64,000 bases of DNA from Pyrodictiaceae archaeon (GTDB taxonomy: Archaea > Thermoproteota > Thermoprotei_A > Sulfolobales > Pyrodictiaceae): contig JALVSY010000007.1 in NCBI GenBank assembly GCA_027036135.1, forward strand, positions 1,124,880 to 1,188,879, read 5' to 3'. The notes below the pieces were generated by a model. It was not told the origin of the DNA. It did not search any database and saw nothing but the letters and a program-made list of their open reading frames with translations. Position numbers and translations under genes: made by a program. Shown one piece after another: positions 26,512 through 45,503 of the stretch. The first letter of the stretch is position 1. Every line of letters starts with the position of its first letter.

Positions 26512-27469
26512 CCAGCTAGCCAGCCCAGAGAGCCTCGGAGCGATAAGGGACGCTGTGGGCAAGGCACTGCTACGCCTCGGCGAGGAGGACAAGGACGTAG
26601 TGGTATTGACCGCTGATGTCGCTAGGAGTACCCGTACTAGGTGGTTCGCCGAGAGGTTCCCAGAGCGCTTCGTGAACATCGGTATATCGGAGCAGGATAT
26701 GATAGGGTTCGCGGCAGGCCTAGCCCTTGGGGGCAAGAAGCCATACGCCGCGGCATTCGCGATGTTCATGATGAGGGCCTGGGAGCAGATAAGAAACACT
26801 GTTGACAGAATGAACCTCAACGTCAAGCTAATAGCTACTCATAGCGGGTTCAGCGACCACGGAGACGGCGCCAGCCACCAGAGCCTAGAAGACATAGCCC
26901 TCATGAGAGTCCTCCACAACATGACAGTAGTCATTCCCGCTGATCCCCCACAAGCCTACAAAGCAATCCTGGCAATCCACCGGGTCAGGGGCCCAGTCTA
27001 TCTAAGGATAGGGCGTGACTACTCGCCCCCCGTAACGGATCCCAGCGCGGAGTACAGGCTCGGAGAACTAGAGCTACTGAGAGACGGAGAGGATGTCGCA
27101 CTGGTCTCGGCTGGCCCCGTCCTAGCACATGTTGTCGAGGCTGCAAAGATGCTAGAGGCTAAGGGCCTAAGCGTTGCGGTCGCTAACCTGCACACAGTCA
27201 AGCCAATAGACGAGGCCCGTCTCGTGAGGCTTGCGCAGCGAACAGGGCTAGTAGTCGTGGTCGAGGAGCACTTCCCGAGAGGTGGGCTCTTCGGAGCAGT
27301 AGCTGAGACCCTTGCGCAGCGATACCCGGTACCCGTGGTCCCGGTAGCGGCCAAAGGCTATGGGCATAGTGCTAGGAGCGTTATGGATCTCTACGAGCGC
27401 CACGGCCTAGTAGCAGACAGTATTGCGAAGAGGGTCGTTGAGGCGGTGGAGAAGTGGCGAAAGAGGTAG
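26495..27469 (+). CDS. Transketolase C-terminal subunit
   Basis: NIGISEQDM, RAWEQIRN, DGASHQSLED, TVKPID, EEH. Confidence 0.92.
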   Translation: MDSMSSQLASPESLGAIRDAVGKALLRLGEEDKDVVVLTADVARSTRTRWFAERFPERFVNIGISEQDMIGFAAGLALGGKKPYAAAFAMFMMRAWEQIRNTVDRMNLNVKLIATHSGFSDHGDGASHQSLEDIALMRVLHNMTVVIPADPPQAYKAILAIHRVRGPVYLRIGRDYSPPVTDPSAEYRLGELELLRDGEDVALVSAGPVLAHVVEAAKMLEAKGLSVAVANLHTVKPIDEARLVRLAQRTGLVVVVEEHFPRGGLFGAVAETLAQRYPVPVVPVAAKGYGHSARSVMDLYERHGLVADSIAKRVVEAVEKWRKR

Positions 27470-28517
27470 CTCTACCAGAGGAGTTCCTATGGCTCCGCAA
27501 GGCACTTGAGAGACTCGACGCCGTTCTCCTAGAGACTATCGCGGCGCGGCTAAACACGGTAAAGGCTATCAGCAAGGCTAAGCGCGGCGTAGGGCTCCCC
27601 GTCTACGACGAGAACCGGGAACGAGAAGCCAGAAGCAACCTGGTTGAGAAGGCTAGGAGCCTTGGACTAAGCAGGGAGCTAGCCGAGAAGCTCTACACCG
27701 TGCTTGTCCACGAGTCTAGGTGTGCTCAGCTCTACTGCCCCGAGAGACTAAGAATATACATATACGGCTACGGCAGGATGGCGCGAACCATTGCCTCGGC
27801 CCTGGCCCGGGCGGGTTGCTGGGTGGCGATAGGCGGGCGCGACGAGGAGAAGGCACGGGGGCTCGCAGAGGAGCTAGGAGCCCTAGCCATGGAGCCTCAG
27901 AGAGGGATCGACTGGGCAGACATGGTCGTCTACGCGGTGCCTGGCAGCGTGGTGCCGGGCTTGCTTGAGGAGCACTTAAGGCATGCTAGGCAGAGCATGC
28001 TCTTCACCGACCTAGCCTCGATCAAGAAACCCCTAGTAGAAAAATAGAACAGGTACTAGCGAGGACCGAGGAGCCCCCGGAGTACGCTAGCCTTCACCCC
28101 CTCTTCGGGCCCATAGAGTGCCCAGCAGGAGAGACGGTAGCGATAATACCTGTTAGGCTAGCGCGCTGGAGGGAGAAGCTAGTCCAGCTCCTACACGGTC
28201 TCGGAATGAAAACAGTAACAATAGACCCGGGTACACATGACCGGGTCATGGCTGTTAACCAGGTACTACACCACCTAGTCCATCAACTATACCACGAGGC
28301 CTCCAAGCAACTAGCAACACGACTAGGCATAGACAACGAGCTAGTAGAGAAACTAATGACCAGGAGCCTTAGACAAACAATCCAAGTAACCAACAGGCTA
28401 GCAACCCTGAGCAACGTGGTCGAGGAGATAAGGCGAGAAAACCCCTACAGCAACGAAGCACTCAAGGCACTAAGAGAAGTCGCCGAGAAGCTCACCACGC
28501 AGCTACGAGGGAGCTGA
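27454..28517 (+). CDS. tyrA: Chorismate mutase-prephenate dehydrogenase fusion, frameshifted at A-run 28040-28044
   Basis: AroQ domain (K...GLPVYDENRE), GYGRM, DLASIK; second frame gives EKIEQV..SLHPLFGP..HDRVMAVNQVLHH. Confidence 0.85.
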
Positions 28518-28529
28518 GAGGCCCCCAGC

Positions 28530-29331
28530 ATGCCTCGGCTACGAGTCGCCTACCTAGGCCCAAGGCATAGCTTCACACACATAGCGGCAACAAGGCTATT
28601 CCCCGACGCGGAGTACGTAGCAGCTAAGAGCATAACCGAGGTCTTTAACCTAGTTGAGAGCTACGAGGCCAGCTACGGCGTGGTGCCGCTCGAGAATAGC
28701 CTAGAGGGCCCTCGTCGGAGAGACCCTAGACAACCTAGCATCAACAATGCTGAGCATATACGCTGGGCTCGAGATGCGCATAAAACTAGTACTAGCCACT
28801 GGCTCCGAGAACCCAGCCAAGAAGCTCTACTCTCACCCCCACGCTTATGGGGAAGCATACCACAACGTAGCAAGGATACTGAGTAGCCACGAGTTCATAC
28901 CAACAACTAGCACAAGCCAGGCAGCAACCGAAGCAGCAAGGAACCATGCTTATTGCCTCTGCAGCGAACAGGCAGCGAGAAAGAACAACCTCAAAATAAT
29001 ACTGGAAGACGCCTCGACCGCACCCAACTACACAAGGTTCATCACCATAGCGTGGCACGACCAGCCAAGAAACGCCCACAGAACAATGCTAATAACAGCG
29101 CTACCAGATAAGCCAGGCTCGCTCCACGACTGGCTAGAGCCCTTCGCCAAGCGAGAAATAAACCTCAAAATGATATACTCGCGCCCAGTCCCAAGCAAGC
29201 CCTGGCACTACAACTTCTACATAGAGCTAGAGGGCACAAGACTAGACAAAAACATAGCAGAAGCACTACAAGAGGCTAAGCAAAGAAGCCTAAGAATACT
29301 AGGCAGCTACCCCTACCGCCAAGAAAGTTGA
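28530..29331 (+). CDS. pheA: Prephenate dehydratase, frameshifted at ~28710
   Basis: AYLGPRHSFT, GVVPLENSLEG|VGETLD, YSHPHA, NYTRF, ACT domain DKPGSL..IYSRP. Confidence 0.88.
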
Positions 29332-30645: not shown

Positions 30646-30930
30646 TTACTCTAGCCGTCTCCGAAACTTCTCGTATATAGTGTCGCGGTGCCCGACAGCT
30701 ATTATATAAACAGTGTCGCGGGCAGGTACGTAGCAATAGACGAGGCGATAGTCTCCCCGCCTAAGCTTGAAGCAGTATAGGTTCCTCAGGCTCGGGGGCA
30801 GGCGTAGCCTTTCCCCAATAAATGGATCCTTCTCCAATTTATCAATAAGCTCTAGGGCCCATTCAACAATATCCCTTGGTAATTGTTTTAAATCACGCCT
30901 CGCTGCTCCAACGAGACGTACACTGGGCAA
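30646..30930 (-). CDS. relE: RelE/ParE-family toxin
   Basis: KLRRGDYRLVY...VGHRDTIY. Confidence 0.88.
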   Translation of the reverse strand: MPSVRLVGAARRDLKQLPRDIVEWALELIDKLEKDPFIGERLRLPPSLRNLYCFKLRRGDYRLVYCYVPARDTVYIIAVGHRDTIYEKFRRRLE

Positions 30931-30974
30931 CTTTTCGGAGCCTCTAAGAAAATTAACACTAGTACATAGATGGA

Positions 30975-31178
30975 TTAGGTGTCTTCTTCCTCTTTCTCGC
31001 GTAGAATCTCTACTAAGGCTTCTCGGGCAGGGACAGTGTCTCTATTAAGCAGGACATCGATTATCCGCTTAGCAAGCTCTCGGCGAAACTCCTCCCTGTA
31101 CACACCCTCGTCGTCGCCCTCGGGGGTCTCAATCTCCACTACTACCTTGACCCTAGATGCACGCAAGATCCGAGACAC
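30975..31178 (-). CDS. Probable antitoxin of the RelE toxin
   Basis: Small acidic ORF directly upstream of relE on the same strand. Confidence 0.6.
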   Translation of the reverse strand: MSRILRASRVKVVVEIETPEGDDEGVYREEFRRELAKRIIDVLLNRDTVPAREALVEILREKEEEDT

Positions 31179-31523: not shown

Positions 31524-32816
31524 TTAGTGCTCGTAGCTTATCCTCGCTCCTAGGCTTACTAGAGTGTCCCAGAACCCGGGGAAGGATTTCGCTACGACCA
31601 TGGGGTCTAGTATCTTGACCGGTTTCTCCGAGGCTAGGCCGAGGAGTGCTGCCAGCATCGCTACTCTGTGGTCACCATATGTGCTATAGGTTACCCCGCC
31701 GGGTAGCTTGCCACACCTCCCCCTCACTTCTATGCAGAGCCCCTTGTCCCTGTCCTCTACTAGCCGGGCCTCGACACCGCCTCTGCGGAGCACGTCGAGT
31801 ATTGCCTCTACACGGTTACTCTCCTTCAGCCTAAGCCTCTCGGCACAACAAATCCTCGAGACACCACAGGCAATGGCGGCGAGGGCTGCTAGCACTGGGC
31901 CTAGATCGGGGTAGTCGCGTATACAGGTCTCGAAGCCCTCTAGCCGCCCTCTCTCTGCCTCGGCGTAGTCCTCGCCAAGGCGTACACAGGCCCCAGCAGC
32001 CCTCAGTACATCGATTATCGCCTTGTCTGGCTGGGGATCCCCTGGGTAAACACTCTCTACGCGAACCCCGCCAGCAATAGCCCCCGCGGCTAGTAGCGCT
32101 GCAGCGCTACTCCAGTCACCCGGTACACGGTACCTCGTGGGCCTAGGAGAGCCCCTTGCAGCGAACCATGAGTAATCTCTGCGCTCGACCTGGGCACCAA
32201 AGGCCTCGAGAACGACAACGCTTATATCAACATAGGGTCTGGACTCGAGGCCCACGACACTTATCTCTAGCTCGCTGAGCCCGGCACCGAGGAAGAGCAG
32301 CGCCGACAAGTACTGGCTACTCTCCCGCGCATCAACCACGGTGCGGCCACTGGTAACCGGGCCCTGGACGACATGAGGCGGGCAACAACACCCCGAGACG
32401 AGGTAACGGGCCCCGAGAACCGCCATAGCCTCGAGCAAGGGCCTAACCGGCCTCTCATGAAGCCTCCCAGAACCATAAACAAGCACAGGCTTATCGAGGA
32501 GCCCTAGGACACCGGTAACAAGCCTCATAGTAGTACCAGACTCCCCCGCATCAATACACCGGGGCCAACGAAGCCCCCTGGGCCCAGGAGACTCCACGAC
32601 AACCCTATCTCGGCTCCTCCGCGCCTCAGCGCCCATGGCCCTAACCGCCTCGAGAGTCGCAAGGGTATCACTACTCCACAACGGGTTCTCGATAATGCTA
32701 GTACCACGAGCCAGCAACGCAGCGAGAAGAGCACGATGAGTATAGCTCTTAGAAGGAGGAGCCCTCACAACACCACTAACACTACCCGGGTAGACAACGA
32801 CAGCCCTGTTACTCAT
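31524..32816 (-). CDS. aroA: EPSP synthase
   Basis: PPSKSYTHR, ESGTTMR, SSQYLS, GDWSSA, LRLKESNR, DHRVAM, KSFPGF. Confidence 0.95.
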   Translation of the reverse strand: MSNRAVVVYPGSVSGVVRAPPSKSYTHRALLAALLARGTSIIENPLWSSDTLATLEAVRAMGAEARRSRDRVVVESPGPRGLRWPRCIDAGESGTTMRLVTGVLGLLDKPVLVYGSGRLHERPVRPLLEAMAVLGARYLVSGCCCPPHVVQGPVTSGRTVVDARESSQYLSALLFLGAGLSELEISVVGLESRPYVDISVVVLEAFGAQVERRDYSWFAARGSPRPTRYRVPGDWSSAAALLAAGAIAGGVRVESVYPGDPQPDKAIIDVLRAAGACVRLGEDYAEAERGRLEGFETCIRDYPDLGPVLAALAAIACGVSRICCAERLRLKESNRVEAILDVLRRGGVEARLVEDRDKGLCIEVRGRCGKLPGGVTYSTYGDHRVAMLAALLGLASEKPVKILDPMVVAKSFPGFWDTLVSLGARISYEH

Positions 32817-32972
32817 TATTACACCCTAGGGACCCCATAGCGAGCTTCGTAACAAGTCCCTCTTAGGGGGCTTGTCCAGGGTTCTTCTATTACTTAGGTA
32901 TACCCTAGCCTACGAGATTATATGAGTAGAGACAAGGACTATGACGGTATCGCAGCGAGCAGGTTACTAAAA

Positions 32973-33536
32973 CTACTCCTTTCTCCTACTGTGTTTTTCT
33001 AGGCAAAGCTCACTAAGCATCCCAGCTATGTACCTTATTACACGGTACGATAGGAGGGCCCCGAGAACCACTAGCGTGATAGAGAGGAGGATTACCTCGT
33101 AGTACGTGGTGCTCGTTAGCTTGCTCTTATAGTTGAGGGCTACTATTGGTAGTATTGCTCCGCTCACGATCACCGATAATAGTAATGGGAGGACAACAAT
33201 CAAGGCGACATGGACGCGCCTAGGCAGGAGAGCAAAACAAAGCTCCAGCTCAACCAGCCCTACCCCCTTCCTAAAAGCTCTATATAAGTACACCACGTAA
33301 GCGACAAGGAAGACCAGAACAGCAACCCCTACACCGATTAGAGAGACACGGGCCCCAAGCTCTGAGGCACCAGAGCTTCTACGAGACAACTCAAGGAAAA
33401 CATCCACAGCTATGGTAGCTATTATGCCCACGAACCCGGCTAAGAGAACTCCTTCCCGGCGACGACGAGCACCAATACCAGCAATAACACCGAAAACAGC
33501 ACCAATAATAACCAAGACAAACGAGACAGAACCCAT
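32973..33536 (-). CDS. Multi-pass membrane protein, paralog family A (candidate immunity)
   Basis: ATG 33536 after GGAGGG; 5-6 hydrophobic segments; similar to 35560 and 36178 ORFs. Confidence 0.75.
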   Translation of the reverse strand: MGSVSFVLVIIGAVFGVIAGIGARRRREGVLLAGFVGIIATIAVDVFLELSRRSSGASELGARVSLIGVGVAVLVFLVAYVVYLYRAFRKGVGLVELELCFALLPRRVHVALIVVLPLLLSVIVSGAILPIVALNYKSKLTSTTYYEVILLSITLVVLGALLSYRVIRYIAGMLSELCLEKHSRRKE

Positions 33537-33599
33537 CCCTAGCCCTCCAGCTTCAAACAATAATAATGACGAGATTCGGTAAAAACGGTTCTAATCAGG

Positions 33600-33788
33600 T
33601 TAGGAATGACATATAAAGAGACATATTGCTGCGTTAACCCCAGCGTCCACAAGGAGGCAGAGAACACAAGCTGGACATGTTATCTCTAACGGCGTATATA
33701 GGCAAGGGAGACAAACCCTAAGGCGTATACTAGCAATGCTCTGCATAAAGTGCTCAGCAAGACATTCTGCTACGCATTGCCGGTAACC
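33600..33788 (-). pseudogene. Cys-rich hydrophobic peptide C-terminus (halocin C8-like pattern), 5'-truncated
   Basis: Open frame GYRQCVAECLAEHFMQSIASIRLRVCLPCLYTPLEITCPACVLCLLVDAGVNAAICLFICHS* (9 Cys); absent from the ORF track. Confidence 0.6.
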
Positions 33789-33896
33789 TTACCGGCATCT
33801 ATGCATTAATCTAGCGGAATAGGCTACGAAGCCTGACAAGCTCGTAGTAGACAATGGTGAGGTGAGAGGGGACATAGCGAGACGAGGTAGAAACAA

Positions 33897-34319
33897 GTGT
33901 TAGGCAAGAAAAAGACTAGACGGAAGTGCGTAATTCACTATCCTACTATAAAGACGCTTCTCCACGCAGTAGAGAAACTAAGACAACTTTACCCAGAGGA
34001 TCACATACACGTAGTCTCTAGAAGCGCCCTAGAGGACGCTGTTTCAGCTGCTAAATTCGCCGCCACATTTACGAGAGAATCATGCAAAGAGAAGAAACTC
34101 GTAGCTGCAGCCACGCTCTTCTATGAGCTAGTAACTAGGCACCCGCTGAGCGATGGTAATAAGAGACTAGCAACAGTTGTGTTAGCAGCGTTTTTGAAGA
34201 AGAACTCGTTGAAGACACCATGGCCAGGTAGGGTTTGGAAAGTAGCTGTCCACGTAGCTACTGGCGAGTGGGATATTGAGAGAACGAAGCGCTGGCTTGA
34301 AAGAATTCAGCACGAGTAG
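33897..34319 (+). CDS. Fic/Doc-family toxin
   Basis: HPLSDGNKRLA Doc-type motif. Confidence 0.85.
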   Translation: MLGKKKTRRKCVIHYPTIKTLLHAVEKLRQLYPEDHIHVVSRSALEDAVSAAKFAATFTRESCKEKKLVAAATLFYELVTRHPLSDGNKRLATVVLAAFLKKNSLKTPWPGRVWKVAVHVATGEWDIERTKRWLERIQHE

Positions 34320-34325
34320 GGACGA

Positions 34326-34460
34326 CTACGCCTTGGCTGGCTTCTTAGCAGCTTTGAGATCATATTCTCTGAGCTTATCCAGGTCTTCACGGTATTCCTG
34401 TATAGCCCAGTCTATGGCTTCTCTCCACGTCACGGCTTTCTTGTGCTTCCTTGTAGGCAT
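34326..34460 (-). CDS. Small charged protein, possible antitoxin of the Doc toxin
   Basis: MPTRKHKKAVTWREAIDWAIQEYREDLDKLREYD...; converges on the Fic gene with a 6-bp gap. Confidence 0.45.
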   Translation of the reverse strand: MPTRKHKKAVTWREAIDWAIQEYREDLDKLREYDLKAAKKPAKA

Positions 34461-34830
34461 GGATTCCTGCCCATGTATAGGATAGAGGTGGTCTAGCTTT
34501 GAGTTTTGTGGAGTACCGTGAGGCAATCAACTATGTTTAGGTCTTATACAGGCTTTAGATCAATGGGCTAAGACGGCGCGCTTCTGCAACGCATACATTG
34601 AGCGCTCTCGCCTGCGCCTTTTATCAATACTTGCCAAGAAACGCCTAGGATGATGCACGAGAAAGCAATAATAATAATAGTAATGGATTTCAATGTGTGG
34701 TGTTGTTTCAGTTATAGTAGGCTTAATAGATAGTCTCGTAGGGGACTCGTAGCTGCTATCCATATGTCTTTTTCTGTGAGCAAGTAATCGCATATACCAG
34801 CGCGTGTAACTATATCCTATTATATGACGG

Positions 34831-34934
34831 TGCTTGAGCTATATCGAGGCCATGCTAATAGGTTGCGCAGCGTGTGTAGCGTATGTAGCAGAGTGTTCTG
34901 GTGCAACATATGGGTGCTTGCATGCTGTACTTGA
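34831..34934 (+). pseudogene. Degenerate Cys-rich peptide C-terminus no. 2
   Basis: CLSYIEAMLIGCAACVAYVAECSGATYGCLHA then TGT ACT TGA in the shifted frame; GAGGAGG follows immediately. Confidence 0.45.
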
Positions 34935-34947
34935 GGAGGGGTACCAA

Positions 34948-35298
34948 GTGAAGGAGCCCTCTACCCTCAAGCTTTTTCTCATACTTTTTGTAAAGATATT
35001 CCTACTAGTAGCGATAATATTGCACGAGTTTACTCCCTTAAATCCCGTCTTTGGCCCTATGCAGGCCGTGATAGCTCTTGCTATTATCTTTGTTCTCTCT
35101 ATAAGGAAGAGACTAGGACATTGCTTATCGTTGCTCACCGATCTCATTATAGCCTTGGACTTGTCTACGTACTTTATCGAGTTAGCGCCAAGGGAGTTCG
35201 AGGCTGCTAAGCCCTTGTTAAACCCTGGTTACTCGTTGCTCTTTCTCAGCCTAATCCTCGTGGTATTTGCACTAGCTAGGCTCATGGTGGAGGAGTGA
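34948..35298 (+). CDS. Small 4-TM membrane protein (candidate immunity)
   Basis: GTG 34948 preceded by GAGGAGGGG; hydrophobic 116 aa. Confidence 0.65.
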   Translation: MKEPSTLKLFLILFVKIFLLVAIILHEFTPLNPVFGPMQAVIALAIIFVLSIRKRLGHCLSLLTDLIIALDLSTYFIELAPREFEAAKPLLNPGYSLLFLSLILVVFALARLMVEE

Positions 35299-35314
35299 AT
35301 CTTGTGCTTACTAG

Positions 35315-35497
35315 CATCCTTGCTACACCAGTAGGGGATGGGCATGGGACTCTCCGGGCTTGATACGAGATTGGCTTGTTTATGGCTTTACGTGCTACGA
35401 GGAGAGTGCAATACGGTTTCCAGAGACTTGCCTGCCCTGCCTAGCATGTGTGGGGGTAGCGGCTACGTTTTGCGCTATAGAGTGCGCACTTATCTAA
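35315..35497 (+). pseudogene. Degenerate Cys-rich peptide C-terminus no. 3
   Basis: Frame reads ...GFTCYEESAIRFPETCLPCLACVGVAATFCAIECALI* (TAA 35495-35497). Confidence 0.55.
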
Positions 35498-35559
35498 TCT
35501 ATTTTGTCCTATTTTTTCTCGGGTAAGCATCTCTTTTCTCTTATCGTAGGAGGTGCGTC

Positions 35560-36177
35560 TTGGTGGGGAGAAGGCATCTTATCTATACTATTGTGGCTGC
35601 TGCTCTGGTTCTCTTGGTGGATTTAATTGGGTATCCCCGCATATTTGGTCTCGCCGATATAGTTGTTAGTGCGGTATTGATAGGTGTTGCTGTATGGGCG
35701 GCCTCGGCCTATGACCGGGGAAGGCTTGATCGCTACACCATCGGCCTCTTAGTGGCCATGGGCATCGTGTTGGCCCAGGTAATTATTTCTCTGAGTCTTA
35801 GCCCTCATAGCCTCTTCATGGTTGTGCTGGGAATGGGTATTCTCATGGGTTATCTTGTCTTTGGTGCGTTGTATTACTTGGGGCGGAGGAGGGGGCTTCG
35901 TCTCTCAGATATTAATATGTGCTCTTTGGCTGATAGGCGTGTCCTCTACGCCTCTATGCTGGCTACTCTCCTAGTCATAGTAGTAGTTGGTGGCGTTGCG
36001 TATGCTCTGCTGGCTTACTGGTATAGGGCTAGGCTTGGCCACTGCATTGCCTGGAGAGAAGCAGTTGACTGGGTAATCATCCTCATAAGCATCTATGCAG
36101 CGTACAGGCTCATGGAGTGGAGCGTGGAGAAGTGCGCAACCCTTAAGAGAGGGAGCGTGAGCCATGGGTTCTCCTGA
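35560..36177 (+). CDS. Multi-pass membrane protein, paralog family A (candidate immunity)
   Basis: AGGAGGTG RBS; ~6 TM; GLRLSDINMC..DRRVLYA and C-terminal YR...EKC shared with paralogs. Confidence 0.75.
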   Translation: MVGRRHLIYTIVAAALVLLVDLIGYPRIFGLADIVVSAVLIGVAVWAASAYDRGRLDRYTIGLLVAMGIVLAQVIISLSLSPHSLFMVVLGMGILMGYLVFGALYYLGRRRGLRLSDINMCSLADRRVLYASMLATLLVIVVVGGVAYALLAYWYRARLGHCIAWREAVDWVIILISIYAAYRLMEWSVEKCATLKRGSVSHGFS

Positions 36178-36768
36178 GTGATTCCTAGCTTTTTGATTCA
36201 CTCATTGCACTGTAGTAGGGTGCTCGGTGGCTTGGTTGGTGTTGTCGAGGCACTGGTTATCTCCGCTGGTGTCGTCGCTGGCGTGGTGGTCGCTGTTAGT
36301 GCTAGGAGGAGGGCTTGGAGAAACTACGTTGCTGGCCTCATGGCTCTTCTCGTGACCGATGCTGTGTGGGGGCTCCTTCAGCTACGGGGCCAGGAGTATA
36401 ACGCTCCAAGTGTCATGGCGTTTATCGGGTCCTTGGCGAGCATCGCTGTACTACTCATCTACGTGCTTGTCGCCGAGCTACGTGGAGTAAGGCTCGTGCA
36501 AGTAATGGAGTGCATTTACCTGGATAGAAGCGTCCTCGTCGCAATAGTAGTTCTGCCCACGGCGCTAATATTCCTCGCCGGGGGACTAGTGGTTATAGCT
36601 GTGGTTGTTCTTAGCCCGGGGAACCAGCCATTCATAATCAACGCGGAGGTAGTGGCTCTAGCCACTGGCATGACCATCGCTGGGTTCCTCGGCGTACGCG
36701 CCTCGATAAACAAGTTATCGAGCTGCATAAGGGCGGCGAAGAAGACTAGCGGGAAGAGAAAAACATAA
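36178..36768 (+). CDS. Multi-pass membrane protein, paralog family A (true start probably TTG ~36232)
   Basis: SARRR..AG, GVRLVQVMEC..LDRSVLVAIVVLP, basic tail; aligns by eye to 32973-33536. Confidence 0.75.
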   Translation: MIPSFLIHSLHCSRVLGGLVGVVEALVISAGVVAGVVVAVSARRRAWRNYVAGLMALLVTDAVWGLLQLRGQEYNAPSVMAFIGSLASIAVLLIYVLVAELRGVRLVQVMECIYLDRSVLVAIVVLPTALIFLAGGLVVIAVVVLSPGNQPFIINAEVVALATGMTIAGFLGVRASINKLSSCIRAAKKTSGKRKT

Positions 36769-36897
36769 CAACGGTAAAAGGTCTCGAAAAGTGCCAGATG
36801 GTCTTGCTAGTCCTTGTTATCGATACAGCGCCTATCGCCTAGGGGCTCACGGCTTCCCTTGCATAGCTTCCCACGTTTTCCTCGGCGTCTTTACTAG

Positions 36898-37251
36898 CTA
36901 GTATAGCTGCTCAAGCCTCCTCGTGGCTCTGAGGAAGAGCTTTGCCCTGTTTTCATCAACTACTATGAGGTTTATTGGGTAGTCCCAGGGCAGTCCAAGC
37001 CTGAATGCCTCATCCCATATCCTTATGGAGGCCTCGATGAGGTCTCGGCTACTATGCCTCCCTGGAAGTATTACTAGGATATCGACGTCGCTTAGCGCGG
37101 TATAGGTTCCTTCGGCCACGCTTCCTATGAGGTATACGCGTGCGCTTGGCGCAATCCTCTTCACGGCCTCGACTACGTATCTTGCGTAGTGTCTCCACTC
37201 GCGTAGGAGCCTAAGCCTCTCCAGCGCTAGCTTCTCCCATGTTAGTTGCAA
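36898..37251 (-). CDS. MNT nucleotidyltransferase antitoxin
   Basis: YLIGSVAEG..SDVDILV. Confidence 0.85.
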   Translation of the reverse strand: MQLTWEKLALERLRLLREWRHYARYVVEAVKRIAPSARVYLIGSVAEGTYTALSDVDILVILPGRHSSRDLIEASIRIWDEAFRLGLPWDYPINLIVVDENRAKLFLRATRRLEQLY

Positions 37252-37660
37252 GCCTCTCCACCTCCTCCAGGAGGCTCCACAGCCTCTTCGCTACCGAGAC
37301 GAGCTTGGAGGCAAGCTCATGGTCGTATTCCAAGTGGCCATACCTGGTAAGCGTGTAGGCATCCTCGAGTGCCCCGAGTAGGCTGCGATAAGTCCTAGTG
37401 AACTCGTCTATCCTTTCGGCGGCCTGGACTAGGCCTGCCCGGAGCAAATTATTCCTCATCAAGCCCAGCAGCCATCTAACACTATGACTGCGTGGCGTAA
37501 CGCCCCAGAGTCTATAAATAATTGCTTTTAGCCTGAGCTGCACAGCTTGTTCAGCATTAAACACAGCTAGATCATACTCTCCTTTCCCGAGAAGGTCTTC
37601 GGCAAGGCTCAAGAATGCACGGGCCCGTCTAGCTAGTAGCCTATAGTAGTCACCACTCAT
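37211..37660 (-). CDS. HEPN-domain protein
   Basis: YDLAVFNAEQAVQLRLKA, PRSHSV, LEDAY..TRY. Confidence 0.85.
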   Translation of the reverse strand: MSGDYYRLLARRARAFLSLAEDLLGKGEYDLAVFNAEQAVQLRLKAIIYRLWGVTPRSHSVRWLLGLMRNNLLRAGLVQAAERIDEFTRTYRSLLGALEDAYTLTRYGHLEYDHELASKLVSVAKRLWSLLEEVERLATNMGEASAGEA

Positions 37661-37743
37661 AGCCATGCCTCCAAGGAAAATATTGACGAGGTGTAGCGGG
37701 GTTATGCCAAGTAAATAGTAAATCCTATGGGTAATTATTGTTT

Positions 37744-38988
37744 CTATGTACATAGAGTCTCAAGTGATTTAACGATTTGCTTGTACATTTCCTCGAGTCC
37801 TTGGCGAGGTTCTCCCTGTTTCTCCTTGCTTTCTTCATCTCTATAGGTTTCCTCGGGCCTAGCAGTATATGTTTCGTAGAGTAGTTTGAGTATGGCTACT
37901 CTAGTGACCCTGTTAGCTGGCGCGATGACGCTGGGGATGCCTATGCCTCCGCCTCCGCAGCCGTGGTGGCAGCTTGTGTTGCACTCCCTGTTCCAGCCAT
38001 AGATCCCTAGGTATCTTGGGTCGCCGTATTGTAGTATGTTTTCCTGTACGAGCTTCTCTACGAGTTCTCTATAATTGTTTGCTTCATCGGCTCCTAGAGA
38101 GGTTTGGGCAACCTGGTAGAGCAGGGCTGTGGTATTCGGGGTTTCCCGGGCTATGTCTCTGAGCCTGAGAATGGCTTGCTCATATAGCGCGCATACTTTG
38201 TCAACGCCGTAGGCGCGCGTGGATAGTAGTAGCTGTGGATGCCCACCAATAACCTCCATTAATTCCCTGTCTATTCCGTATTCCCTTGCCAATGCCTCGG
38301 AGTCCCTTAGCGTCATCTCGCCGAGGTAGAACGGGACAACGTAGAGAGGGCTAATAGGGCTACGCAATGCCCGGAGGCAAAAAGCATAGTCACTCGTAAC
38401 CATTACGAGCTTCGCTCCCAGGCCCTCTAGGGCTAACTCGTGCTGAATATCTGCAACAAGCTTGATGAAGCCACGTATAGCCTCGTCCTCTAGGCTGAGC
38501 AGGTACTGGGCCTCATCAATAACTATGACTGTGCCCTTCTCGCTGCTCTTGGCAGCTAGCCTTAGGAGAAACCTATAGTACTCCTCCACTCCCTGCCTAT
38601 AGAAGAGGCTCACTATGCCACTAAGCTCCTGCTCGGCCCCAAGAACTTTCTCAACGAGGACGCCTAGCCCAAGCTCAGCTGCAACCCTCTTAACGAGGCT
38701 ACCAGCTATCCCTAGGCTGCGCACCACGCCCCCCAATAGCTCCTCGAGAACCTTTTCCCGGCTCACCGGGCCAAGGCACTGCAGCGCTACATACGCTGTG
38801 CCATAGCCCTCGTTTCGCAGCTTCTCAGAGCCTCTAGGACGAGCCTCGTCTTACCTATACCACTAGGGGCCGTAGACTAGGACAACGTCCTTAGGGCTCT
38901 CAAGCGACGGTCTAATGTACTTAACTAGGCGCCTAAGCTCGCAGACTCGGCTAACGAATCTCTCTGTCAACTCTCCTCTTGTCCCCAC
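37744..38988 (-). CDS. Archaeal ATPase; Walker A region displaced by two compensating indels (~38868, ~38822)
   Basis: Upstream of the listed ORF: RFVSRVCELRRL...LVYGP|SGIGKTRLVLEAL|KLRNEG; Walker B IVIDEAQ; IGGHP. Confidence 0.8.
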
Positions 38989-39095
38989 TACGTTATTCCT
39001 AGCAAGCGAGTACCTAATAGCCTGAACTAGGCACAATAAGAGACTAAATAGAGAGCCCCTGCGATATCAGGCAGTGCTAAGGAGGGATAAGTTAC

Positions 39096-39986
39096 TTGGC
39101 CGCCGAGCGTGCTAGTGCCAGGGCTCACGCGGGTCTTGGCATTATTAATGCTATTGGCTCTGGAGGCTTTGGGGCCGCGACTGCCCTGGATCTATGGCTG
39201 CGCCTAGAGGCTTGGCGGTGCAATAGCAGCGGGGGCTACGTGGTTACTCGTGGCGAGCGCGTCGAAGTAGCTAGGGACATACTTGACTCAGTGACCAGTG
39301 TCGTCTCCGAGTACGCTGGCCGCGGCCTCCCGGGGCTGTGTACGAGGGGCTGGTCAGAGATACCCCTCGAGGCTGGGCTTAAGGGGAGTAGTGCCCTCAT
39401 AAACGCGCTGATACTGGCAGCGCTGGAGCTTGTGGGGGCTAGTGATCCTGGGCTGGAGATGTTGGCGAGGCTGGGGGTTAGGGCGGCGCGGCTAGCAGGC
39501 CTAACAGTCACAGGGGCTCTTGACGATCACCTCGTGGTCAGTGGGTGCGGTACCTACCTCACAGATAACCCTGGGCAACGAGTACTGGGCCACCTCGATG
39601 GCCCGGAGCGCTTCGTGGCGATAATTGTCCCGGGTAGGAGGAGTATAAGGAGCATAGAGCCAGGAGAGTTCCGCGCCTATGCTCCGCTCTACCTTGTTGC
39701 TTGGAGGCTCCTAGAGAAAGGAGAGTGGGGCCCAGCAGCCCTGGTCAATGGTGTCGCGACGAGCCTGGCGACGAGCACTTCTCCGAGAACCCTAGTAGAC
39801 CTAGTAGACATGGGCGCTGAGACAGCAGGGGTCTCGGGCAAGGGGCCAGCAATCTACGCGGTCACGGAGACCAGGGAGAAGGCCGAGAAAATAGCAACGG
39901 TTATGCAGAGAAAACATGGCGGCGAGGCACTTGTCACGCACACAATCCCGTGCACCGCGCAAAAGAGGAGAGAACCCTCTAGCTAG
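39096..39986 (+). CDS. aroK: Archaeal (GHMP-type) shikimate kinase
   Basis: IINAI..G.GA, SEIPLEAGLKGSSA, TVTGALDD, GVSGKGPA. Confidence 0.92.
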   Translation: MAAERASARAHAGLGIINAIGSGGFGAATALDLWLRLEAWRCNSSGGYVVTRGERVEVARDILDSVTSVVSEYAGRGLPGLCTRGWSEIPLEAGLKGSSALINALILAALELVGASDPGLEMLARLGVRAARLAGLTVTGALDDHLVVSGCGTYLTDNPGQRVLGHLDGPERFVAIIVPGRRSIRSIEPGEFRAYAPLYLVAWRLLEKGEWGPAALVNGVATSLATSTSPRTLVDLVDMGAETAGVSGKGPAIYAVTETREKAEKIATVMQRKHGGEALVTHTIPCTAQKRREPSS

Positions 39987-41099: not shown

Positions 41100-44000
41100 C
41101 TATATGACTACAGCTGTCAGTTCTAGTGGCAGTATTGACCAGTAGAAGAAGTAGTTTGTTGAGCTACAGCAAGTATTACCAACAGCCGTTACTGGTATTC
41201 CGTCTATACTTACGGCATACGATAGTGCATAGTTACCTGGTGTTGCTGTCCACTTAGCCTTAATATATAGTGTTGCCATTAGTATTGTTGTGCGCCAGTA
41301 ACTTGAGGCGAAAGTCCTTAACGTCTTTGTATAGAAGTATTTGCTGAACACTCTGGAGCCACCATAGTAAATGCTTGTTCCTATACGCTTTAGGAATTCA
41401 TTGGTCGATGTTATTGCTAGGCTTGGGTTGCTCAGCCTAGCTGGCATATATACTACGACTCTGGTATATATACCATAGCCCTTGCTGAGATACAGCGTCT
41501 GCGGATATATTCTTACTAGTACAGGTGTTATCTTTATAGTAAATGGCTCCTCTAGGCTCTTGCCGCTGAACTGTATGTTTCTAACAACTATTCTGTAAAC
41601 GCCTGGACCACTTATTGGCACTATAATTCTCGCATATCCAGGTACTGGTTCGTCAAAGGGCATTTTGAAATCGAGCGTTAGCTTTGCGCCGAGCTGGAGC
41701 CCGTGCACTACCATCGTCTTAACAGGGTACAGGTGTGCACCATTACTATCAGTATATGTCTTTGCGCCTATAATGGCCATGTGGTACTTATAGGGACCAT
41801 ATACTTGTATGTCAAGATTACTTGCGTAGTTCTTATCACTTACAGGCCACGACAGCTCTACTAGTAGGTATTTTATCGAAGGACTAGTAACTATTAGGGG
41901 GAATACCCTCCAATCGCCGCTTTCATATCTCCAAGTATAGTCAAAGACTCCTCTTAGATAGTAGTTCTGGTATAGGTTCTTTCTATCTATCCAGCTATAT
42001 CTCTTATAGCTTATTACTACACCATTGCCTATTGATGAGAGCTTATAGGCGTTGACGATGGTCGTTGGCACTAATACCTTATTGTGACTGAATATATTCT
42101 CTACCACAACGTAGCCTTCCTCAATACCTTTAATCGGTATTCCAAGGGTTCTTACTGGAAGATATGTTGTGCCTCTCACATATACAAATGAAGTCATAGG
42201 TAATATGCTGTACCATCTTGTGAACCTATAGCCCTCTATCCTCACAAGAGCATATGTTTTTGCACCAGTACCGCTCCAGCTGTTGCCGAAGACTCTATAA
42301 ACGAGCACTAGTTTCACGGGATAGTTTTCAACATTAATACCCGTATAAAGGCTCACTAGCTTCTTGATTTCAGCTATTTGGTATTTTAGATTTGCCACTT
42401 GTAAGTGGAAGCTGTTTGCACCTCGCAAGTCATACTGGATTCTGGCAGTTTCCCACGGCTCTATTTTACCATCATGGTTTAGGTCTATCCATGCCCACAG
42501 CTCTATACCGTTAAATAATATTCCCTTAGAATAGTTGCTGTATCTACCACTTGTATTGAAGTATTTGAATGGATATGCTAGACTTATTTCAATCATGTTA
42601 TACTTTTCGTATACAGCTGGGTTAATGATAGCTAATACTCTTGTATCGATATAACTCATTTTACCAAGGTCTAATAGCACTCTACCATTAATACAACGTG
42701 TCATCATAGTCACGCCAGGAGCGCCGCAAAGGCTGTGGCTGAAGACAAGCGTAGGCTTGACGGCATATACATGGTATATACCGTGACCATGTATTACTAA
42801 TGTCTCACTTCGTAGCCCAAGACTTGGAACAAATATCAGCTTTGGCTCATACCAGCTTAGCTCCACTGAACTTCCTTTACCATATGTAAATGCTGATATA
42901 TCATCATCCAGTAATACGTGATAAGCCTTCATAAAGTCCTTGTTATAGACTAGTGTTCCTTCTCCTCTTACTAGCTCGACAGCCCTAAGGGCATCAACGA
43001 AGCCAGCTCCCTGGCTAAATGGGTCAAACCCCGTATCATATGCACTATTCATCAATACGGTCTTTAGTAAAGGTGCTGGCATTCTGGCCCCATTATGTAG
43101 TTCCTTATACATTGTTACAACCAATGCAGCTACGCCAGCGGCCATTGGTGTTGCTTGACTAGTACCTCCAAAGAGATTAAATGCTAAGAAACCACTAAGA
43201 TGCCCCCATGTTAATGAATCCCATGGTCTTCCAACAGCGAAGGCAAAGCTCCCTATAGCTACTATATCTGGCTTTGATAGAAATGTCTCAGCAGGTCCTC
43301 GATCGCTCCAAGATACTATCTCCTTGTTGCCTCCTGGTAAGTACCCGAAGAGCGGTCTATAAGTGAACTCGGTGGCAGCACCCACGGTTATTACCATACT
43401 TGCTGCTCCAGGGACTGTTACAGTACCCCAACCAGGACCACCATTACCAGCTGCAACGAAGTCGGCTGTACCGCTAATAGCACTTGTATAATCAAATATC
43501 AAGCTGACAGGATCCATGCCGCTAGCCCAGCCCCATAAAGCCCAGGCGCTTATGCCGTAACTATTGCTGGTCTCATCAACTTGATGTCTACCAGTATATG
43601 TCCATGTCCACATCCCTCCCGCAAACGCTGTCCATGGATTCTGTGTACCGGGTACCGGCTCTACGAAGTATGGCTTACCATATGGTGTTTTCTCGTCGAA
43701 ACCGCTAAAGAAATACACCGATGTCAGTACATTTCCTAGCCATAGCGCAGAGGCAGCAGCTATCTTAGCCTCGGGTGCCTCGCCAGTAACTATGCTCCAG
43801 CCATTGTTTATGGGTCCATATCCTGTATAGGCGTAAACAGGGCGCCCAGCAGCAGTTGTTGCACAGAACGTTCCATGACCATAGAAATCATACTCTAAGT
43901 CAAAGTATTGCCCGCTCCATATATCCATGCCAGGCCAGATATAGCCAAGGCTTTCAAAAGTCCATGTATCCCATAGAAGTGATGAAGATATAGCATATCC

Positions 44001-45503
44001 TTCTTGTAGTTTGTTCATGATATGTTCCAGTACTCCTTTCTCCTGCATTAATATTAATCCTAAGGCGTCATTTACGTATCCAGCCAATGTGCCTACGCTG
44101 AAGTCGTAATACCCATCTCCGTTTATATCAAGTGCTGCTATTTCGTGTCCATAACGTATTGGGGTCTCGTTAGCAAAGCTATAGATAGGCCTCGATACAG
44201 GTGGAGGCGGGAAGTAGCTTGCAAGCCCGCACTCACTCGCAGCCTCATAAAGATAGTAGTAAGCAGTCTTCATATCAAGCAATATGGTGTCGTAGTACCC
44301 GTCTCCATTACTGTCATAAATTATTGCAGGGACAGTAAATGCTATTTTTCCTATAGGTGTATCTAGTACCCTTACTACAAGACCAAAATGAGGTGGTACA
44401 CGGGACTTAGTCACATTTACTGGTACTTGCCAGTATTCTGACAAGTTATAGATCACTTGACAACTACCAACAGAGGCGAATCCTTTATTATACTTGAATA
44501 CATATATTGGTGGCACGAAGAAGTAAAGTTTGCTTAGATTAACGTAGACATAACTGGAGTTTACTGGTACTGCCGCCACGGGCGTCAGCACTAGCCCATA
44601 CTCGTCGGAGTCGAGGATCAATGGTATACCATTGCTATCCCTCGCTATTGCGTCTAGGCCTAGGCCTGGGCTAGCATAATCCACACCAGTATCTATTATG
44701 GCTATTGTGGCGTTTTGGCCCATGTCGCCGTACTTGTACCACACATCTATAGCCTTTGTTATATTAACCGTGTAGTGTATTGGGCCGAACCCGCTACCCT
44801 CTGTCGGCAGAACTGCTGGGTTCTTTAGGCTAGGCTTCTGCTTTGCAAGCTTCTCGGCCTTAGCAAGATCTATGCTTGGCCTCTTGCCTTCAACAAGCTT
44901 CTCTAGTGCTATCTTGTCCCCTCTCCCTAGTAGCTCTTCTAGGGCCTTCTTGACCTTGGCCTTATCTACTGCATATATTGGCTTGCTTGTCGAAGCTAGC
45001 AGCTCGTCTATCCTTACATCTGGGAGTATTGCTGCTACAAAGCCGAGCCTCGATATCTTATCAATACTTGTCGGGGTAACCCAGCCAGCGACAACAGTGT
45101 AGAGATGCGTCGGGTAGACACCGGTTATCACCATGTACCTTGCTAGCTCCCTGATGTCCCTGAGGCTAACACCCTTTGGTAGGAGTAGTAGAGCCCTCGC
45201 ATATGGCTCCTTGGGCTTCTCCAGCTTGATGTGGGCGTGCTCGGCGAACTTCTCGGCAAAGTCTAGCACCGGGTCAAGTATACGACTCGTTGTCAGCGCT
45301 CCTTTTTGCCAGAAAGCCTTGCTGCGGAACGCTGGGTGGACGTAGGTTGTTAAGTGGTACTTGGGCTTAATAGTTGCGGCCGATGCTGGCGCGAACATTG
45401 CTGCATAGGGTAGAACCATGACGGCTACGACTATGACTGCGAAGAGTACGCGTAGAACATGTGGCCTCATATGCCCACACCCTTTTATTACCGCTGTTAA
45501 CAC
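41100..45503 (-). CDS. Large secreted S8 subtilase (pyrolysin/STABLE-like)
   Basis: Signal peptide; IIDTG, GHGTFCA, AAGNGG, SDRGP, KPDIVA, GTSQATPMAAG. Confidence 0.92.
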   Translation of the reverse strand: MLTAVIKGCGHMRPHVLRVLFAVIVVAVMVLPYAAMFAPASAATIKPKYHLTTYVHPAFRSKAFWQKGALTTSRILDPVLDFAEKFAEHAHIKLEKPKEPYARALLLLPKGVSLRDIRELARYMVITGVYPTHLYTVVAGWVTPTSIDKISRLGFVAAILPDVRIDELLASTSKPIYAVDKAKVKKALEELLGRGDKIALEKLVEGKRPSIDLAKAEKLAKQKPSLKNPAVLPTEGSGFGPIHYTVNITKAIDVWYKYGDMGQNATIAIIDTGVDYASPGLGLDAIARDSNGIPLILDSDEYGLVLTPVAAVPVNSSYVYVNLSKLYFFVPPIYVFKYNKGFASVGSCQVIYNLSEYWQVPVNVTKSRVPPHFGLVVRVLDTPIGKIAFTVPAIIYDSNGDGYYDTILLDMKTAYYYLYEAASECGLASYFPPPPVSRPIYSFANETPIRYGHEIAALDINGDGYYDFSVGTLAGYVNDALGLILMQEKGVLEHIMNKLQEGYAISSSLLWDTWTFESLGYIWPGMDIWSGQYFDLEYDFYGHGTFCATTAAGRPVYAYTGYGPINNGWSIVTGEAPEAKIAAASALWLGNVLTSVYFFSGFDEKTPYGKPYFVEPVPGTQNPWTAFAGGMWTWTYTGRHQVDETSNSYGISAWALWGWASGMDPVSLIFDYTSAISGTADFVAAGNGGPGWGTVTVPGAASMVITVGAATEFTYRPLFGYLPGGNKEIVSWSDRGPAETFLSKPDIVAIGSFAFAVGRPWDSLTWGHLSGFLAFNLFGGTSQATPMAAGVAALVVTMYKELHNGARMPAPLLKTVLMNSAYDTGFDPFSQGAGFVDALRAVELVRGEGTLVYNKDFMKAYHVLLDDDISAFTYGKGSSVELSWYEPKLIFVPSLGLRSETLVIHGHGIYHVYAVKPTLVFSHSLCGAPGVTMMTRCINGRVLLDLGKMSYIDTRVLAIINPAVYEKYNMIEISLAYPFKYFNTSGRYSNYSKGILFNGIELWAWIDLNHDGKIEPWETARIQYDLRGANSFHLQVANLKYQIAEIKKLVSLYTGINVENYPVKLVLVYRVFGNSWSGTGAKTYALVRIEGYRFTRWYSILPMTSFVYVRGTTYLPVRTLGIPIKGIEEGYVVVENIFSHNKVLVPTTIVNAYKLSSIGNGVVISYKRYSWIDRKNLYQNYYLRGVFDYTWRYESGDWRVFPLIVTSPSIKYLLVELSWPVSDKNYASNLDIQVYGPYKYHMAIIGAKTYTDSNGAHLYPVKTMVVHGLQLGAKLTLDFKMPFDEPVPGYARIIVPISGPGVYRIVVRNIQFSGKSLEEPFTIKITPVLVRIYPQTLYLSKGYGIYTRVVVYMPARLSNPSLAITSTNEFLKRIGTSIYYGGSRVFSKYFYTKTLRTFASSYWRTTILMATLYIKAKWTATPGNYALSYAVSIDGIPVTAVGNTCCSSTNYFFYWSILPLELTAVVI

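Follow-up and report, generated by a model that had tools for sequence, protein, structure and literature searches.

Two short Cys-rich peptides encoded in the genome of a Pyrodictiaceae archaeon, here called pep1 and pep3, are on sequence comparison real relics of the variable C-terminal tips of a secreted-protein family. Each ends shortly upstream of a gene for a polytopic membrane protein of a single family (family A). Both lie on contig JALVSY010000007.1 of assembly GCA_027036135.1 (2.2 Mb, 40 contigs, 99.6% complete), in a stretch of 64,000 nucleotides (nt) that was analyzed as a whole and is referred to as the window (G000:C7:1124880-1188879). The same DNA is also present in hydrothermal-vent metagenome runs. 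In our view, this locus probably represents an orphan-cassette array whose origin is a polymorphic family of secreted proteins in hyperthermophilic Thermoproteota, with toxin-immunity as the proposed mechanism. The peptides and membrane genes are the following (ORF, open reading frame; aa, amino acids).

33600-33788, minus strand: pep1, a complete orphan C-terminal tip; stop-to-stop ORF of 62 codons plus stop, 9 Cys
32973-33536, minus strand: A1, polytopic membrane protein of 187 aa, putative partner of pep1; family profile E 5e-81, coding score 0.12 bits per codon
35315-35500, plus strand: pep3, orphan tip of the pep1 type; 60 codons, 7 Cys
35560-36177, plus strand: A2, family-A membrane protein of 205 aa, directly behind pep3; family profile E 2.3e-71
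36232-36768, plus strand: A3, family-A membrane protein of 178 aa behind A2, without a tip of its own; family profile E 5.9e-80
34828-34947, plus strand: pep2, Cys-rich segment with 5 Cys, its frame continuing into the membrane ORF behind it; tip status unproven
34948-35298, plus strand: B, membrane protein of 116 aa (154 aa from TTG 34834); coding score 0.118

The parent family (P0006/P0011 type) is covered by no model in the Pfam and NCBIfam versions searched. It was reached through a weak match of A3 in G015, whose genus is a different one within the same taxonomic family. There the match lies downstream of a gene for a protein of 328 aa that has a signal peptide and ends in a hydrophobic, Cys-packed stretch. 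Its closest relative in G004, which is a complete genome from the window's genus, is a 314-aa precursor. A profile was built from six members found in a large protein library. The original prediction had looked to full-length signal-peptide precursors ending in the Cys pattern, and these do exist: the family is present in 15 of 301 genomes of the order, from 7 of its 13 families, with at most four matches per genome. Its members consist of a signal peptide, a conserved, sequon-rich beta N-domain of ∼200 aa, a junction, and a hypervariable hydrophobic tip of 50–75 aa. All 16 distinct genes listed have 8–14 Cys in the last 70 aa, along with several N-x-S/T sequons; nine of the 16 begin with a hydrophobic signal-like N-terminus, as does the G277 precursor by way of its upstream ORF. 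No paper describing the family was found, though it may have a place in the 2019 mBio survey by Makarova and colleagues or its supplements; that survey is said to treat archaeal polymorphic toxins and halocins.

The switch from conserved part to tip is sharp and falls at the junction, DGxW(D/S)C (variants DGYWDC, DGFWSC and DGGWDC). P0006 and P0007 are identical at 160 of 169 positions through the junction motif, then at 14 of the 53 aligned in the tip; P0009 and P0010 agree at 251 of 255 positions in the N-terminal part, then at 43 of 76 in the tip. Thus N-terminal parts 95–98% identical carry tips 26–57% identical. The reverse arrangement also occurs. G004 and G183 have similar tips (z 21.3) and similar downstream genes (z 8.9), and the 120 residues before their tips are unrelated (z -0.5), indicating that like tips sit on unlike carriers. 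A model of P0006, made from 19 aligned sequences, has a confident beta-rich N-domain (residues ∼100–245; predicted local distance difference test score, pLDDT, 85–98) and a helical tip predicted without confidence. Foldseek gave no match to the N-domain at E ≤ 0.001, and VIA-align gave no clear structural relative (best Z 5.6). We also saw a degenerate precursor copy with 10 in-frame stops in G027 (L030; G027:C1:264344-264766), and decay seems common in the family (this copy; L015/L027 on G277:C91).

To place the window peptides, we compared each with 19 tips from outside the window, using 1000 shuffles per comparison. The best scores of pep1 were with the tips of G277 (z 11.8) and P0007 (z 9.9), and the same two tips were matched by pep3 (z 9.7 and 7.9); none of these scores was reached by any of the 1000 shuffles. 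A profile made from the P0007 and G277 tips only was then run against the 46,697 six-frame pieces of the genome of at least 25 aa. The best match was pep1 (E 1.3e-8), pep3 was also matched (E 9.3e-6), and the next match had an E of 1. The alignment of pep1 covers the full ORF, from junction to stop. Right behind an in-frame TAA (33789-33791) it opens with GYRQC, at the G-Y position of the DGYWDC junction, and by manual count on the alignment it retains nine of the 10 Cys positions common to P0007 and G277. In pep3 the C-terminal half keeps the Cys skeleton (TC..C..C.G.....C...C), and the N-terminal half is decayed, with RGWAWDS where DGYWDC aligns. The original prediction of a Cys skeleton common to three peptides therefore holds for pep1 and pep3 by way of the outside tips, and marginally by direct comparison (score equaled by 45 of 3000 shuffles, composition controlled). 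It does not hold for pep2, whose scores with pep1 and pep3 were equaled by 922 and 727 of 3000 shuffles, respectively.

Neither a signal peptide nor a pro-region accompanies the window copies, as had been predicted. The full-length-family profile matched nothing in the six-frame genome (best E 0.76), so no N-domain exists in the assembly. Pep1 and pep3 are therefore orphans, and the window copies are fragments rather than genes of the family. The tips have no GGAGG-type motif; the start candidates are an internal ATG only for pep1 and a TTG only for pep3. A TATA-like TTTATAT was read within the 3' end of pep1, and it could drive A1. At the other end of pep1 lies a 16-nt near-palindrome, CCGGTAA-GG-TTACCGG on the minus strand (33780-33795), which spans the TAA and the first codons of pep1 (GGT TAC) and coincides with the expected joint between the conserved part of the parent gene and the tip. 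Such a near-palindrome may have been left by recombination or may be due to chance.

The stops of pep1 and pep3 lie 63 nt upstream of the A1 ATG (33536) and 59 nt upstream of the A2 TTG (35560). Of the three Cys-rich ends said to precede membrane genes, these two stand; the third, pep2, had been read across two frames. An adjacent small gene is the rule in the family at large. In 14 of 15 precursor loci a same-strand ORF begins from -72 to +130 nt of the precursor stop, and 13 of those 14 ORFs have at least two transmembrane (TM)-like segments; the 15th locus is at a contig end. In G277, 53 nt separate a family-A gene (E 2.9e-15; z 20.8 against A2) from the tip upstream of it, which is of the pep1/pep3 type and is more closely related to both than any other. 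This pairing of tip type and family-A gene therefore recurs in another family of the order. Family-A genes at a greater distance from the precursor were found in G004, where 949 nt lie between the precursor and the gene (z 6.5 against A1; 175 aa) and the gene adjacent to the tip encodes 128 aa, and in G015, where the gene that A3 matched (E 6.3e-4) is frame-split and lies 590 nt downstream, behind a 107-aa membrane gene. In these three genomes, as predicted, a family-A gene stands downstream of a precursor.

The type of tip also varies with that of the downstream gene. Among 120 pairs of loci, the downstream genes are alike (z ≥ 5) in five, and the tips are alike in all five; no pair has like downstream genes and unlike tips. 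This count, inflated by kinship, gives supportive but not strong grounds for sequence co-variation of tip and membrane gene. Stand-alone cassettes are found as well, both in the window (pep1-A1 and pep3-A2) and outside it. In G027, behind a full gene and its 114-aa membrane gene, there are a tip fragment lacking its 5' part and a membrane gene of 94 aa; both resemble their counterparts at a second locus of the same genome, making this an orphan cassette.

Family A itself has ∼5 helices and an invariant Cys (C100) after a basic loop, and is represented by no database model. The genome contains exactly three copies by the family profile, with mutual identities of 21–28%. We also considered that the peptides were off-frame remnants of family-A genes; this was ruled out, as the profile matches A1–A3 only in the island and genome. 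In agreement with the claim that the membrane genes are intact, A1, A2, A3 and B are all open and score as coding in this genome, the score of A1 being within the range of real genes. A1 has a ribosome-binding motif, GGAGGG (33543-33548), 6 nt upstream of its ATG, and A2 has GGAGGTG (35549-35555) 4 nt upstream of its TTG. The A1 start is that of homologues P0001-P0003. The A3 start is residue 19 of the longest ORF, as in the Atlas record; the Atlas search gave nothing for A3. Indels at 36199-36228 in vent runs X7 and X10 fit 36178-36231, between A2 and A3, as non-coding.

Close homologues of A1 are few: four (P0001-P0004; 76–97% identity) among 5.8 billion proteins, and scans of metagenome and genome contigs gave no locus for them. 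The first ∼24 residues of P0004 match another reading frame of the A1 5' region (33443-33538, minus strand), which points either to a frameshift in that population or to a start called wrongly there. Relatives of the family also occur in G004, G015, G277 (two copies), G157 and, as a fragment, G019. The stand-alone gene of G157 (L039; G157:C1:25282-28770) adjoins a small ORF read from sequence as AbrB/SpoVT-like, and its surroundings are rich in toxin-antitoxin genes, as are those in the window.

The case of pep2 is different. The frame with CLSYIEAMLIGCAACVAYVAECSGATYGCLHA has no stop at 34934; it runs on (..AVLEEGYQVKEPS..) into the 154-aa ORF at 34834-35298, and the TGA at 34932-34934 is in a different frame from CLSYIEAMLIGCAACVAYVAECSGATYGCLHA. 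The best score of pep2 among the 19 tips was z 3.5 (4 of 1000 shuffles), which is not significant for 19 tests, and pep2 was missing from the matches of the outside-tip profile among the 46,697 pieces. It may be a very diverged type of tip. The true start of B is probably GTG 34948, with GAGGAGGGG (34933-34941) ending 6 nt upstream of it. The TTG at 34834 is lost by a T>C change (CTG) in runs X4, X6 and X10, and in run X10 a 1-nt insertion behind 34939 uncouples the pep2 stretch from B. B is not a member of family A, to which it has no significant likeness (E 0.0052 among 171 pieces); it is also unlike the downstream genes of G004 and G015, and no relatives of it were found.

Comparison with other vent runs bore out the expectation that cassette content varies between strains, as did the near-identical N-terminal parts with unlike tips. 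Among the 40 differences listed, out of 682 between the window and these runs, pep1 has at least one stop-to-stop, two synonymous and three non-synonymous changes; its stop is kept in three other runs (TAA to TAG). In run X6, a 184-nt deletion (35522-35705) takes out the A2 start. In run X10, indels at 35304, 35319 and 35337 fall in the region of the N-terminal half of pep3, and one contig joins the A2 end via 815 foreign letters to the end of the neighboring Doc-family gene. A weak joint of 32828 to 35420 in the same run, seen in one contig with a 66-nt side, would delete A1, pep1, the Doc-family gene, B and half of pep3.

Structure prediction also points to a pairing of pep1 with A1. The modeled complex scored 0.72, compared with 0.00 for the best of three controls, giving a verdict of 'supports binding'. 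The mark for this verdict was reached by 58 of 80 solved complexes and by 2 of 110 mismatched pairs, counts that are rough since own alignments were used. Contacts agreed by at least 92% among model runs, with a partner pLDDT of at least 77, and pep1 is predicted to lie inside the A1 helix bundle. In the modeled interface, pep1 residues 39-51 face A1 residues ∼69-80 and 116-125. The structure model of A1 is of low confidence (pLDDT 64).

We propose the following explanation. Full-length members would be exported via the N-terminal signal peptide, and activity would reside in the tip, which would be directed at membranes once released from the cell or displayed on its outside. Neutralization would come from the cognate membrane protein, by binding of the tip within the membrane. 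Recombination at the junction would move tip-plus-partner cassettes between backbones. The organism of the window would have lost, or never had, the exported backbone. It keeps two tips of the same type, each before a family-A gene with its own ribosome-binding motif. Besides these it retains A3, also of family A, and, behind the unverified Cys-rich stretch, the unrelated membrane gene B. With orphan tips and membrane genes and no backbone, this organism would therefore be an immune non-producer, and its tips would be relics or donors for recombination. An antagonistic function seems to us reasonably likely; secretion, cleavage, toxicity and protection are steps that we infer. The architecture itself resembles that of polymorphic toxin and immunity genes by the marks that the original prediction had named, with killing and protection conditional on those steps. 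More broadly, and with some hesitation, we suggest that Thermoproteota of this order may wield previously undescribed archaeocins: Sec-exported glycoproteins whose tip-plus-membrane-immunity cassettes would be swapped across genera, even onto unrelated carriers, with some strains of vent communities, such as that of the window, being immune non-producers that carry just an immunity library and dead tips.

Known systems provide parallels, the closest in form being halocin C8. ProC8 has 283 aa and its mature peptide of 76 aa is cut after export (bioRxiv 10.64898/2026.07.27.741052). Halocin C8 and the Cys-tip family are alike in that a Cys-rich hydrophobic peptide of ∼70 aa ends an exported precursor of ∼300 aa. 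Yet homology is unsupported. The halocin C8 domain model TIGR04449 matched neither pep1, pep3 nor B at E ≤ 0.1, and nothing in the genome at E ≤ 1; on full-length members it gave 10.6 and 11.3 bits in two of 12, below the cut-off of 24. Aligned by hhalign, the family and true TIGR04449 proteins of the same order gave a probability of 0.1%, and those proteins have a different N-terminal part and a different downstream gene. The link to halocin C8 that had been predicted is thus reduced to analogy. A protein-language-model search placed P0006 nearest to a cluster that is 17% 'Gpos_C8-like' (PF27906), at 0.88, below the 0.9 bar; this is a lead only. In ProC8 the N-terminal part is the immunity protein, whereas in the Cys-tip family the N-terminal part is conserved while the tips vary, which makes the variable downstream membrane gene the better candidate for immunity. 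True halocin C8 domain proteins of ∼220 aa (26–32 bits) were seen in three genomes of one family of the order (L031-L035 in G050, G121 and G127). In G121 and G127 (L032, L033 and L035) they are followed by a protein of ∼180–200 aa with two TM segments and a helical C-terminal part. This is a candidate archaeocin system separate from that of the window.

Contact-dependent inhibition (CDI) and Rhs systems (CdiA-CT/CdiI in the former) are alike in organization. In them, too, a short junction motif links the conserved part, used for delivery, to a hypervariable tip, with a small cognate gene directly behind; they also have 5'-truncated orphan tip-plus-partner cassettes in arrays, and like tips on unrelated N-terminal parts. 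Pfam and NCBIfam scans found no homology to CdiA, Rhs/YD or known toxin domains. The CDI/Rhs backbone is a giant filament or shell, whereas that of the Cys-tip family is a small Sec-type secreted protein; CDI/Rhs tips are enzymes with soluble partners, whereas here the tips are short hydrophobic peptides and the partners polytopic membrane proteins. In addition, the window orphans, unlike those of CDI/Rhs, keep nothing of the conserved part upstream of the junction. Membrane-active class II bacteriocins come with dedicated membrane immunity proteins, and they share with the window a gene for a small hydrophobic peptide next to one for a small polytopic membrane protein that would be protective. 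They differ in being leader-peptide products; here the peptide is the end of a glycoprotein-like precursor of ∼300 aa, is far richer in Cys, and is cassette-exchanged. In the short flanks that were inspected we saw no ABC (ATP-binding cassette) exporter, no protease for processing and no dedicated exporter.

Several points count against our reading of the locus. By codon model, pep1 and pep3 score -0.13 and -0.27 bits per codon, and with Cys codons masked 0.18 and -0.08; thus pep1 is coding-like only when masked, and pep3 is non-coding even then. Pep2 is unverified as a tip, and both it and its partner B lack relatives. Of 16 pairs of loci with like tips, 11 have unlike first downstream ORFs, although some of these may stem from crude ORF choice, and the co-variation count overstates support because related genomes are not independent. 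The expectation that membrane homologues be preceded by Cys-rich genes, which holds at loci of G277, G004 and G015, fails for the family-A genes of G157 and G277:C162 and for the G019 fragment, none of which has a detectable tip within ∼1.2 kb upstream. The two outside carriers of the pep1/pep3 type of tip are both imperfect: one TAA breaks the G277 precursor into ORFs of 125 and 169 aa, and in P0007 some 80 residues are missing at the start. For the complex model, natural proteins without relation to the pair served as controls; these were probably not hydrophobic peptides, and helix bundles in general may accept a hydrophobic helical hairpin. With the assembly in 40 contigs, a full-length copy could lie in unassembled DNA. 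A hydrophobic Cys-rich C-terminus could be a simple membrane anchor, and disulfide stabilization is uncertain in a sulfidic anaerobic habitat.

Another reading, in which promoter or leader DNA merely happens to be open in these Cys-rich frames, is very improbable. Cys-richness by itself is weak evidence: at least six Cys within 35 aa occur in 335 of 36,147 stop-to-stop ORFs (≥ 30 aa), mostly off-frame within real genes. Among 3,720 intergenic small ORFs, 12 have at least seven Cys, pep1 (9) and pep3 (7) included. The coding scores are poor when unmasked, and two large protein searches with pep1 gave no homologue: none among proteins of 26–84 aa, and in the other, among 1.84 billion representatives, only P0005, a 525-aa repeat protein with seven matched stretches, which we judged spurious. 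A tblastn search of pep1 against its own genome returned self matches only. The off-frame ORFs, the coding scores and the protein searches would suit chance, yet for pep1 and pep3 the outside-tip profile, with its clear gap to the next match, the z scores of 9.7–11.8, and an alignment that spans junction to stop refute it; pep2 is excepted. Another alternative is that the tips are dead relics with no present role, family A having its own function and the adjacency being left over from a decayed operon in a junk-collecting island. We consider this decidedly unlikely. It would account for the half-decayed, non-coding pep3, the lack of a signal peptide or convincing start context for any tip, the possible A1 promoter in the pep1 3' end, the tipless family-A genes, and an island that has also gathered Doc and HEPN-MNT genes, with a ParE-like gene just outside. 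But pep1 is open over 62 codons with most of its skeleton Cys and a stop kept in three other runs, G277, from a different family of the order, shows the same type of tip paired with family A, and A1–A3 have diverged to the degree expected of specificity partners. This alternative differs from our explanation in present role only, not in origin.

The remaining alternative involves no weapon at all, and we regard it as unlikely but credible. The full-length protein would be a glycoprotein of the cell surface, anchored in the membrane by its hydrophobic Cys-rich end, and would form a two-part complex with the downstream protein, serving for example kin recognition, or adhesion in the cell networks of this archaeal family. 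The polymorphism would then provide specificity of recognition, and the orphans would be alleles that are spare or dead. In favor of this, the tips are hydrophobic, with helices predicted; the placement of pep1 inside the A1 bundle, as modeled, would suit a stable partner no less than an immunity protein; for the N-domain, neither a toxin-like nor a known fold was found; and no processing protease or dedicated exporter was seen in the short flanks. Against it, like tips occur on unrelated N-terminal parts (G004 versus G183), orphan tip-plus-partner cassettes exist, and some genomes that lack the exported protein nevertheless have the partner genes. These three are hallmarks of toxin-immunity exchange, as in CDI and Rhs systems (see also PMC3482391). 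Moreover, a structural partner would be useless without the anchor protein, yet A1–A3 are open and coding-like.

The antagonism systems known from archaea are very few, chiefly halocins and sulfolobicins; we know of none from organisms growing near 100°C. The Cys-tip family carries the full grammar of polymorphic toxin-immunity systems, and within a single archaeal order it spans at least seven families. Tips that proved active would be peptides of extreme heat stability, directed at membranes and matched by antidotes embedded in the membrane, and would offer a direct handle on strain-level conflict in vent communities. There is also a warning as to methods: huge searches with the peptide came back empty, and the link came via the weak match of a neighboring membrane gene.

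The cassettes lie in accessory DNA that interrupts an aromatic amino-acid gene cluster. In G004, the two flanking aro genes are divergent and 112 nt apart, with nothing between them. Rfam gave no matches at E ≤ 1, and PHROGs none for the peptides or membrane genes. The remaining features, several of them assigned by Pfam and NCBIfam, are as follows.

32817-39095: accessory DNA, ∼6.3 kb, between aroA (EPSP synthase) and the GHMP-type shikimate kinase gene (Pfam, NCBIfam)
31524-32816, minus strand: aroA/EPSP synthase, one flank of the accessory stretch
39096-39986, plus strand: GHMP-type shikimate kinase, the other flank
33897-34319, plus strand: Doc-family gene (Pfam Fic 1.1e-7, TIGR01550 1.4e-10)
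34326-34526, minus strand: 66-aa ORF convergent with the Doc-family gene; coding score 0.18 bits per codon, no family
36898-37251, minus strand: MNT (Pfam, NCBIfam)
37211-37753, minus strand: HEPN (Pfam, NCBIfam)
37744-38766, minus strand: ATPase-like gene (Pfam, NCBIfam)

The Doc-family gene has no same-strand antitoxin gene upstream; pep1, on the opposite strand, fills that space. Just outside the accessory stretch, a ParE-family toxin gene (30646-30930, minus strand; Pfam 3.9e-8) has a 67-aa ORF upstream (30975-31178, minus strand). The pair sits between the chorismate synthase gene and aroA, and constitutes a second accessory insertion in the aro cluster (30646-31178). Elsewhere in the window, the chorismate mutase/prephenate dehydrogenase/prephenate dehydratase region (27454-29331) is broken into three ORFs: PDH_N (27454-28047), PDH_C (28206-28517) and the C-terminal part only of PDT (28747-29331). 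This three-way split could reflect frameshifts or gene decay. Away from the cassettes, a 1467-aa ORF (41100-45503) in a stretch of low G+C content (0.44–0.49) contains a subtilase domain (Pfam 1.7e-24).

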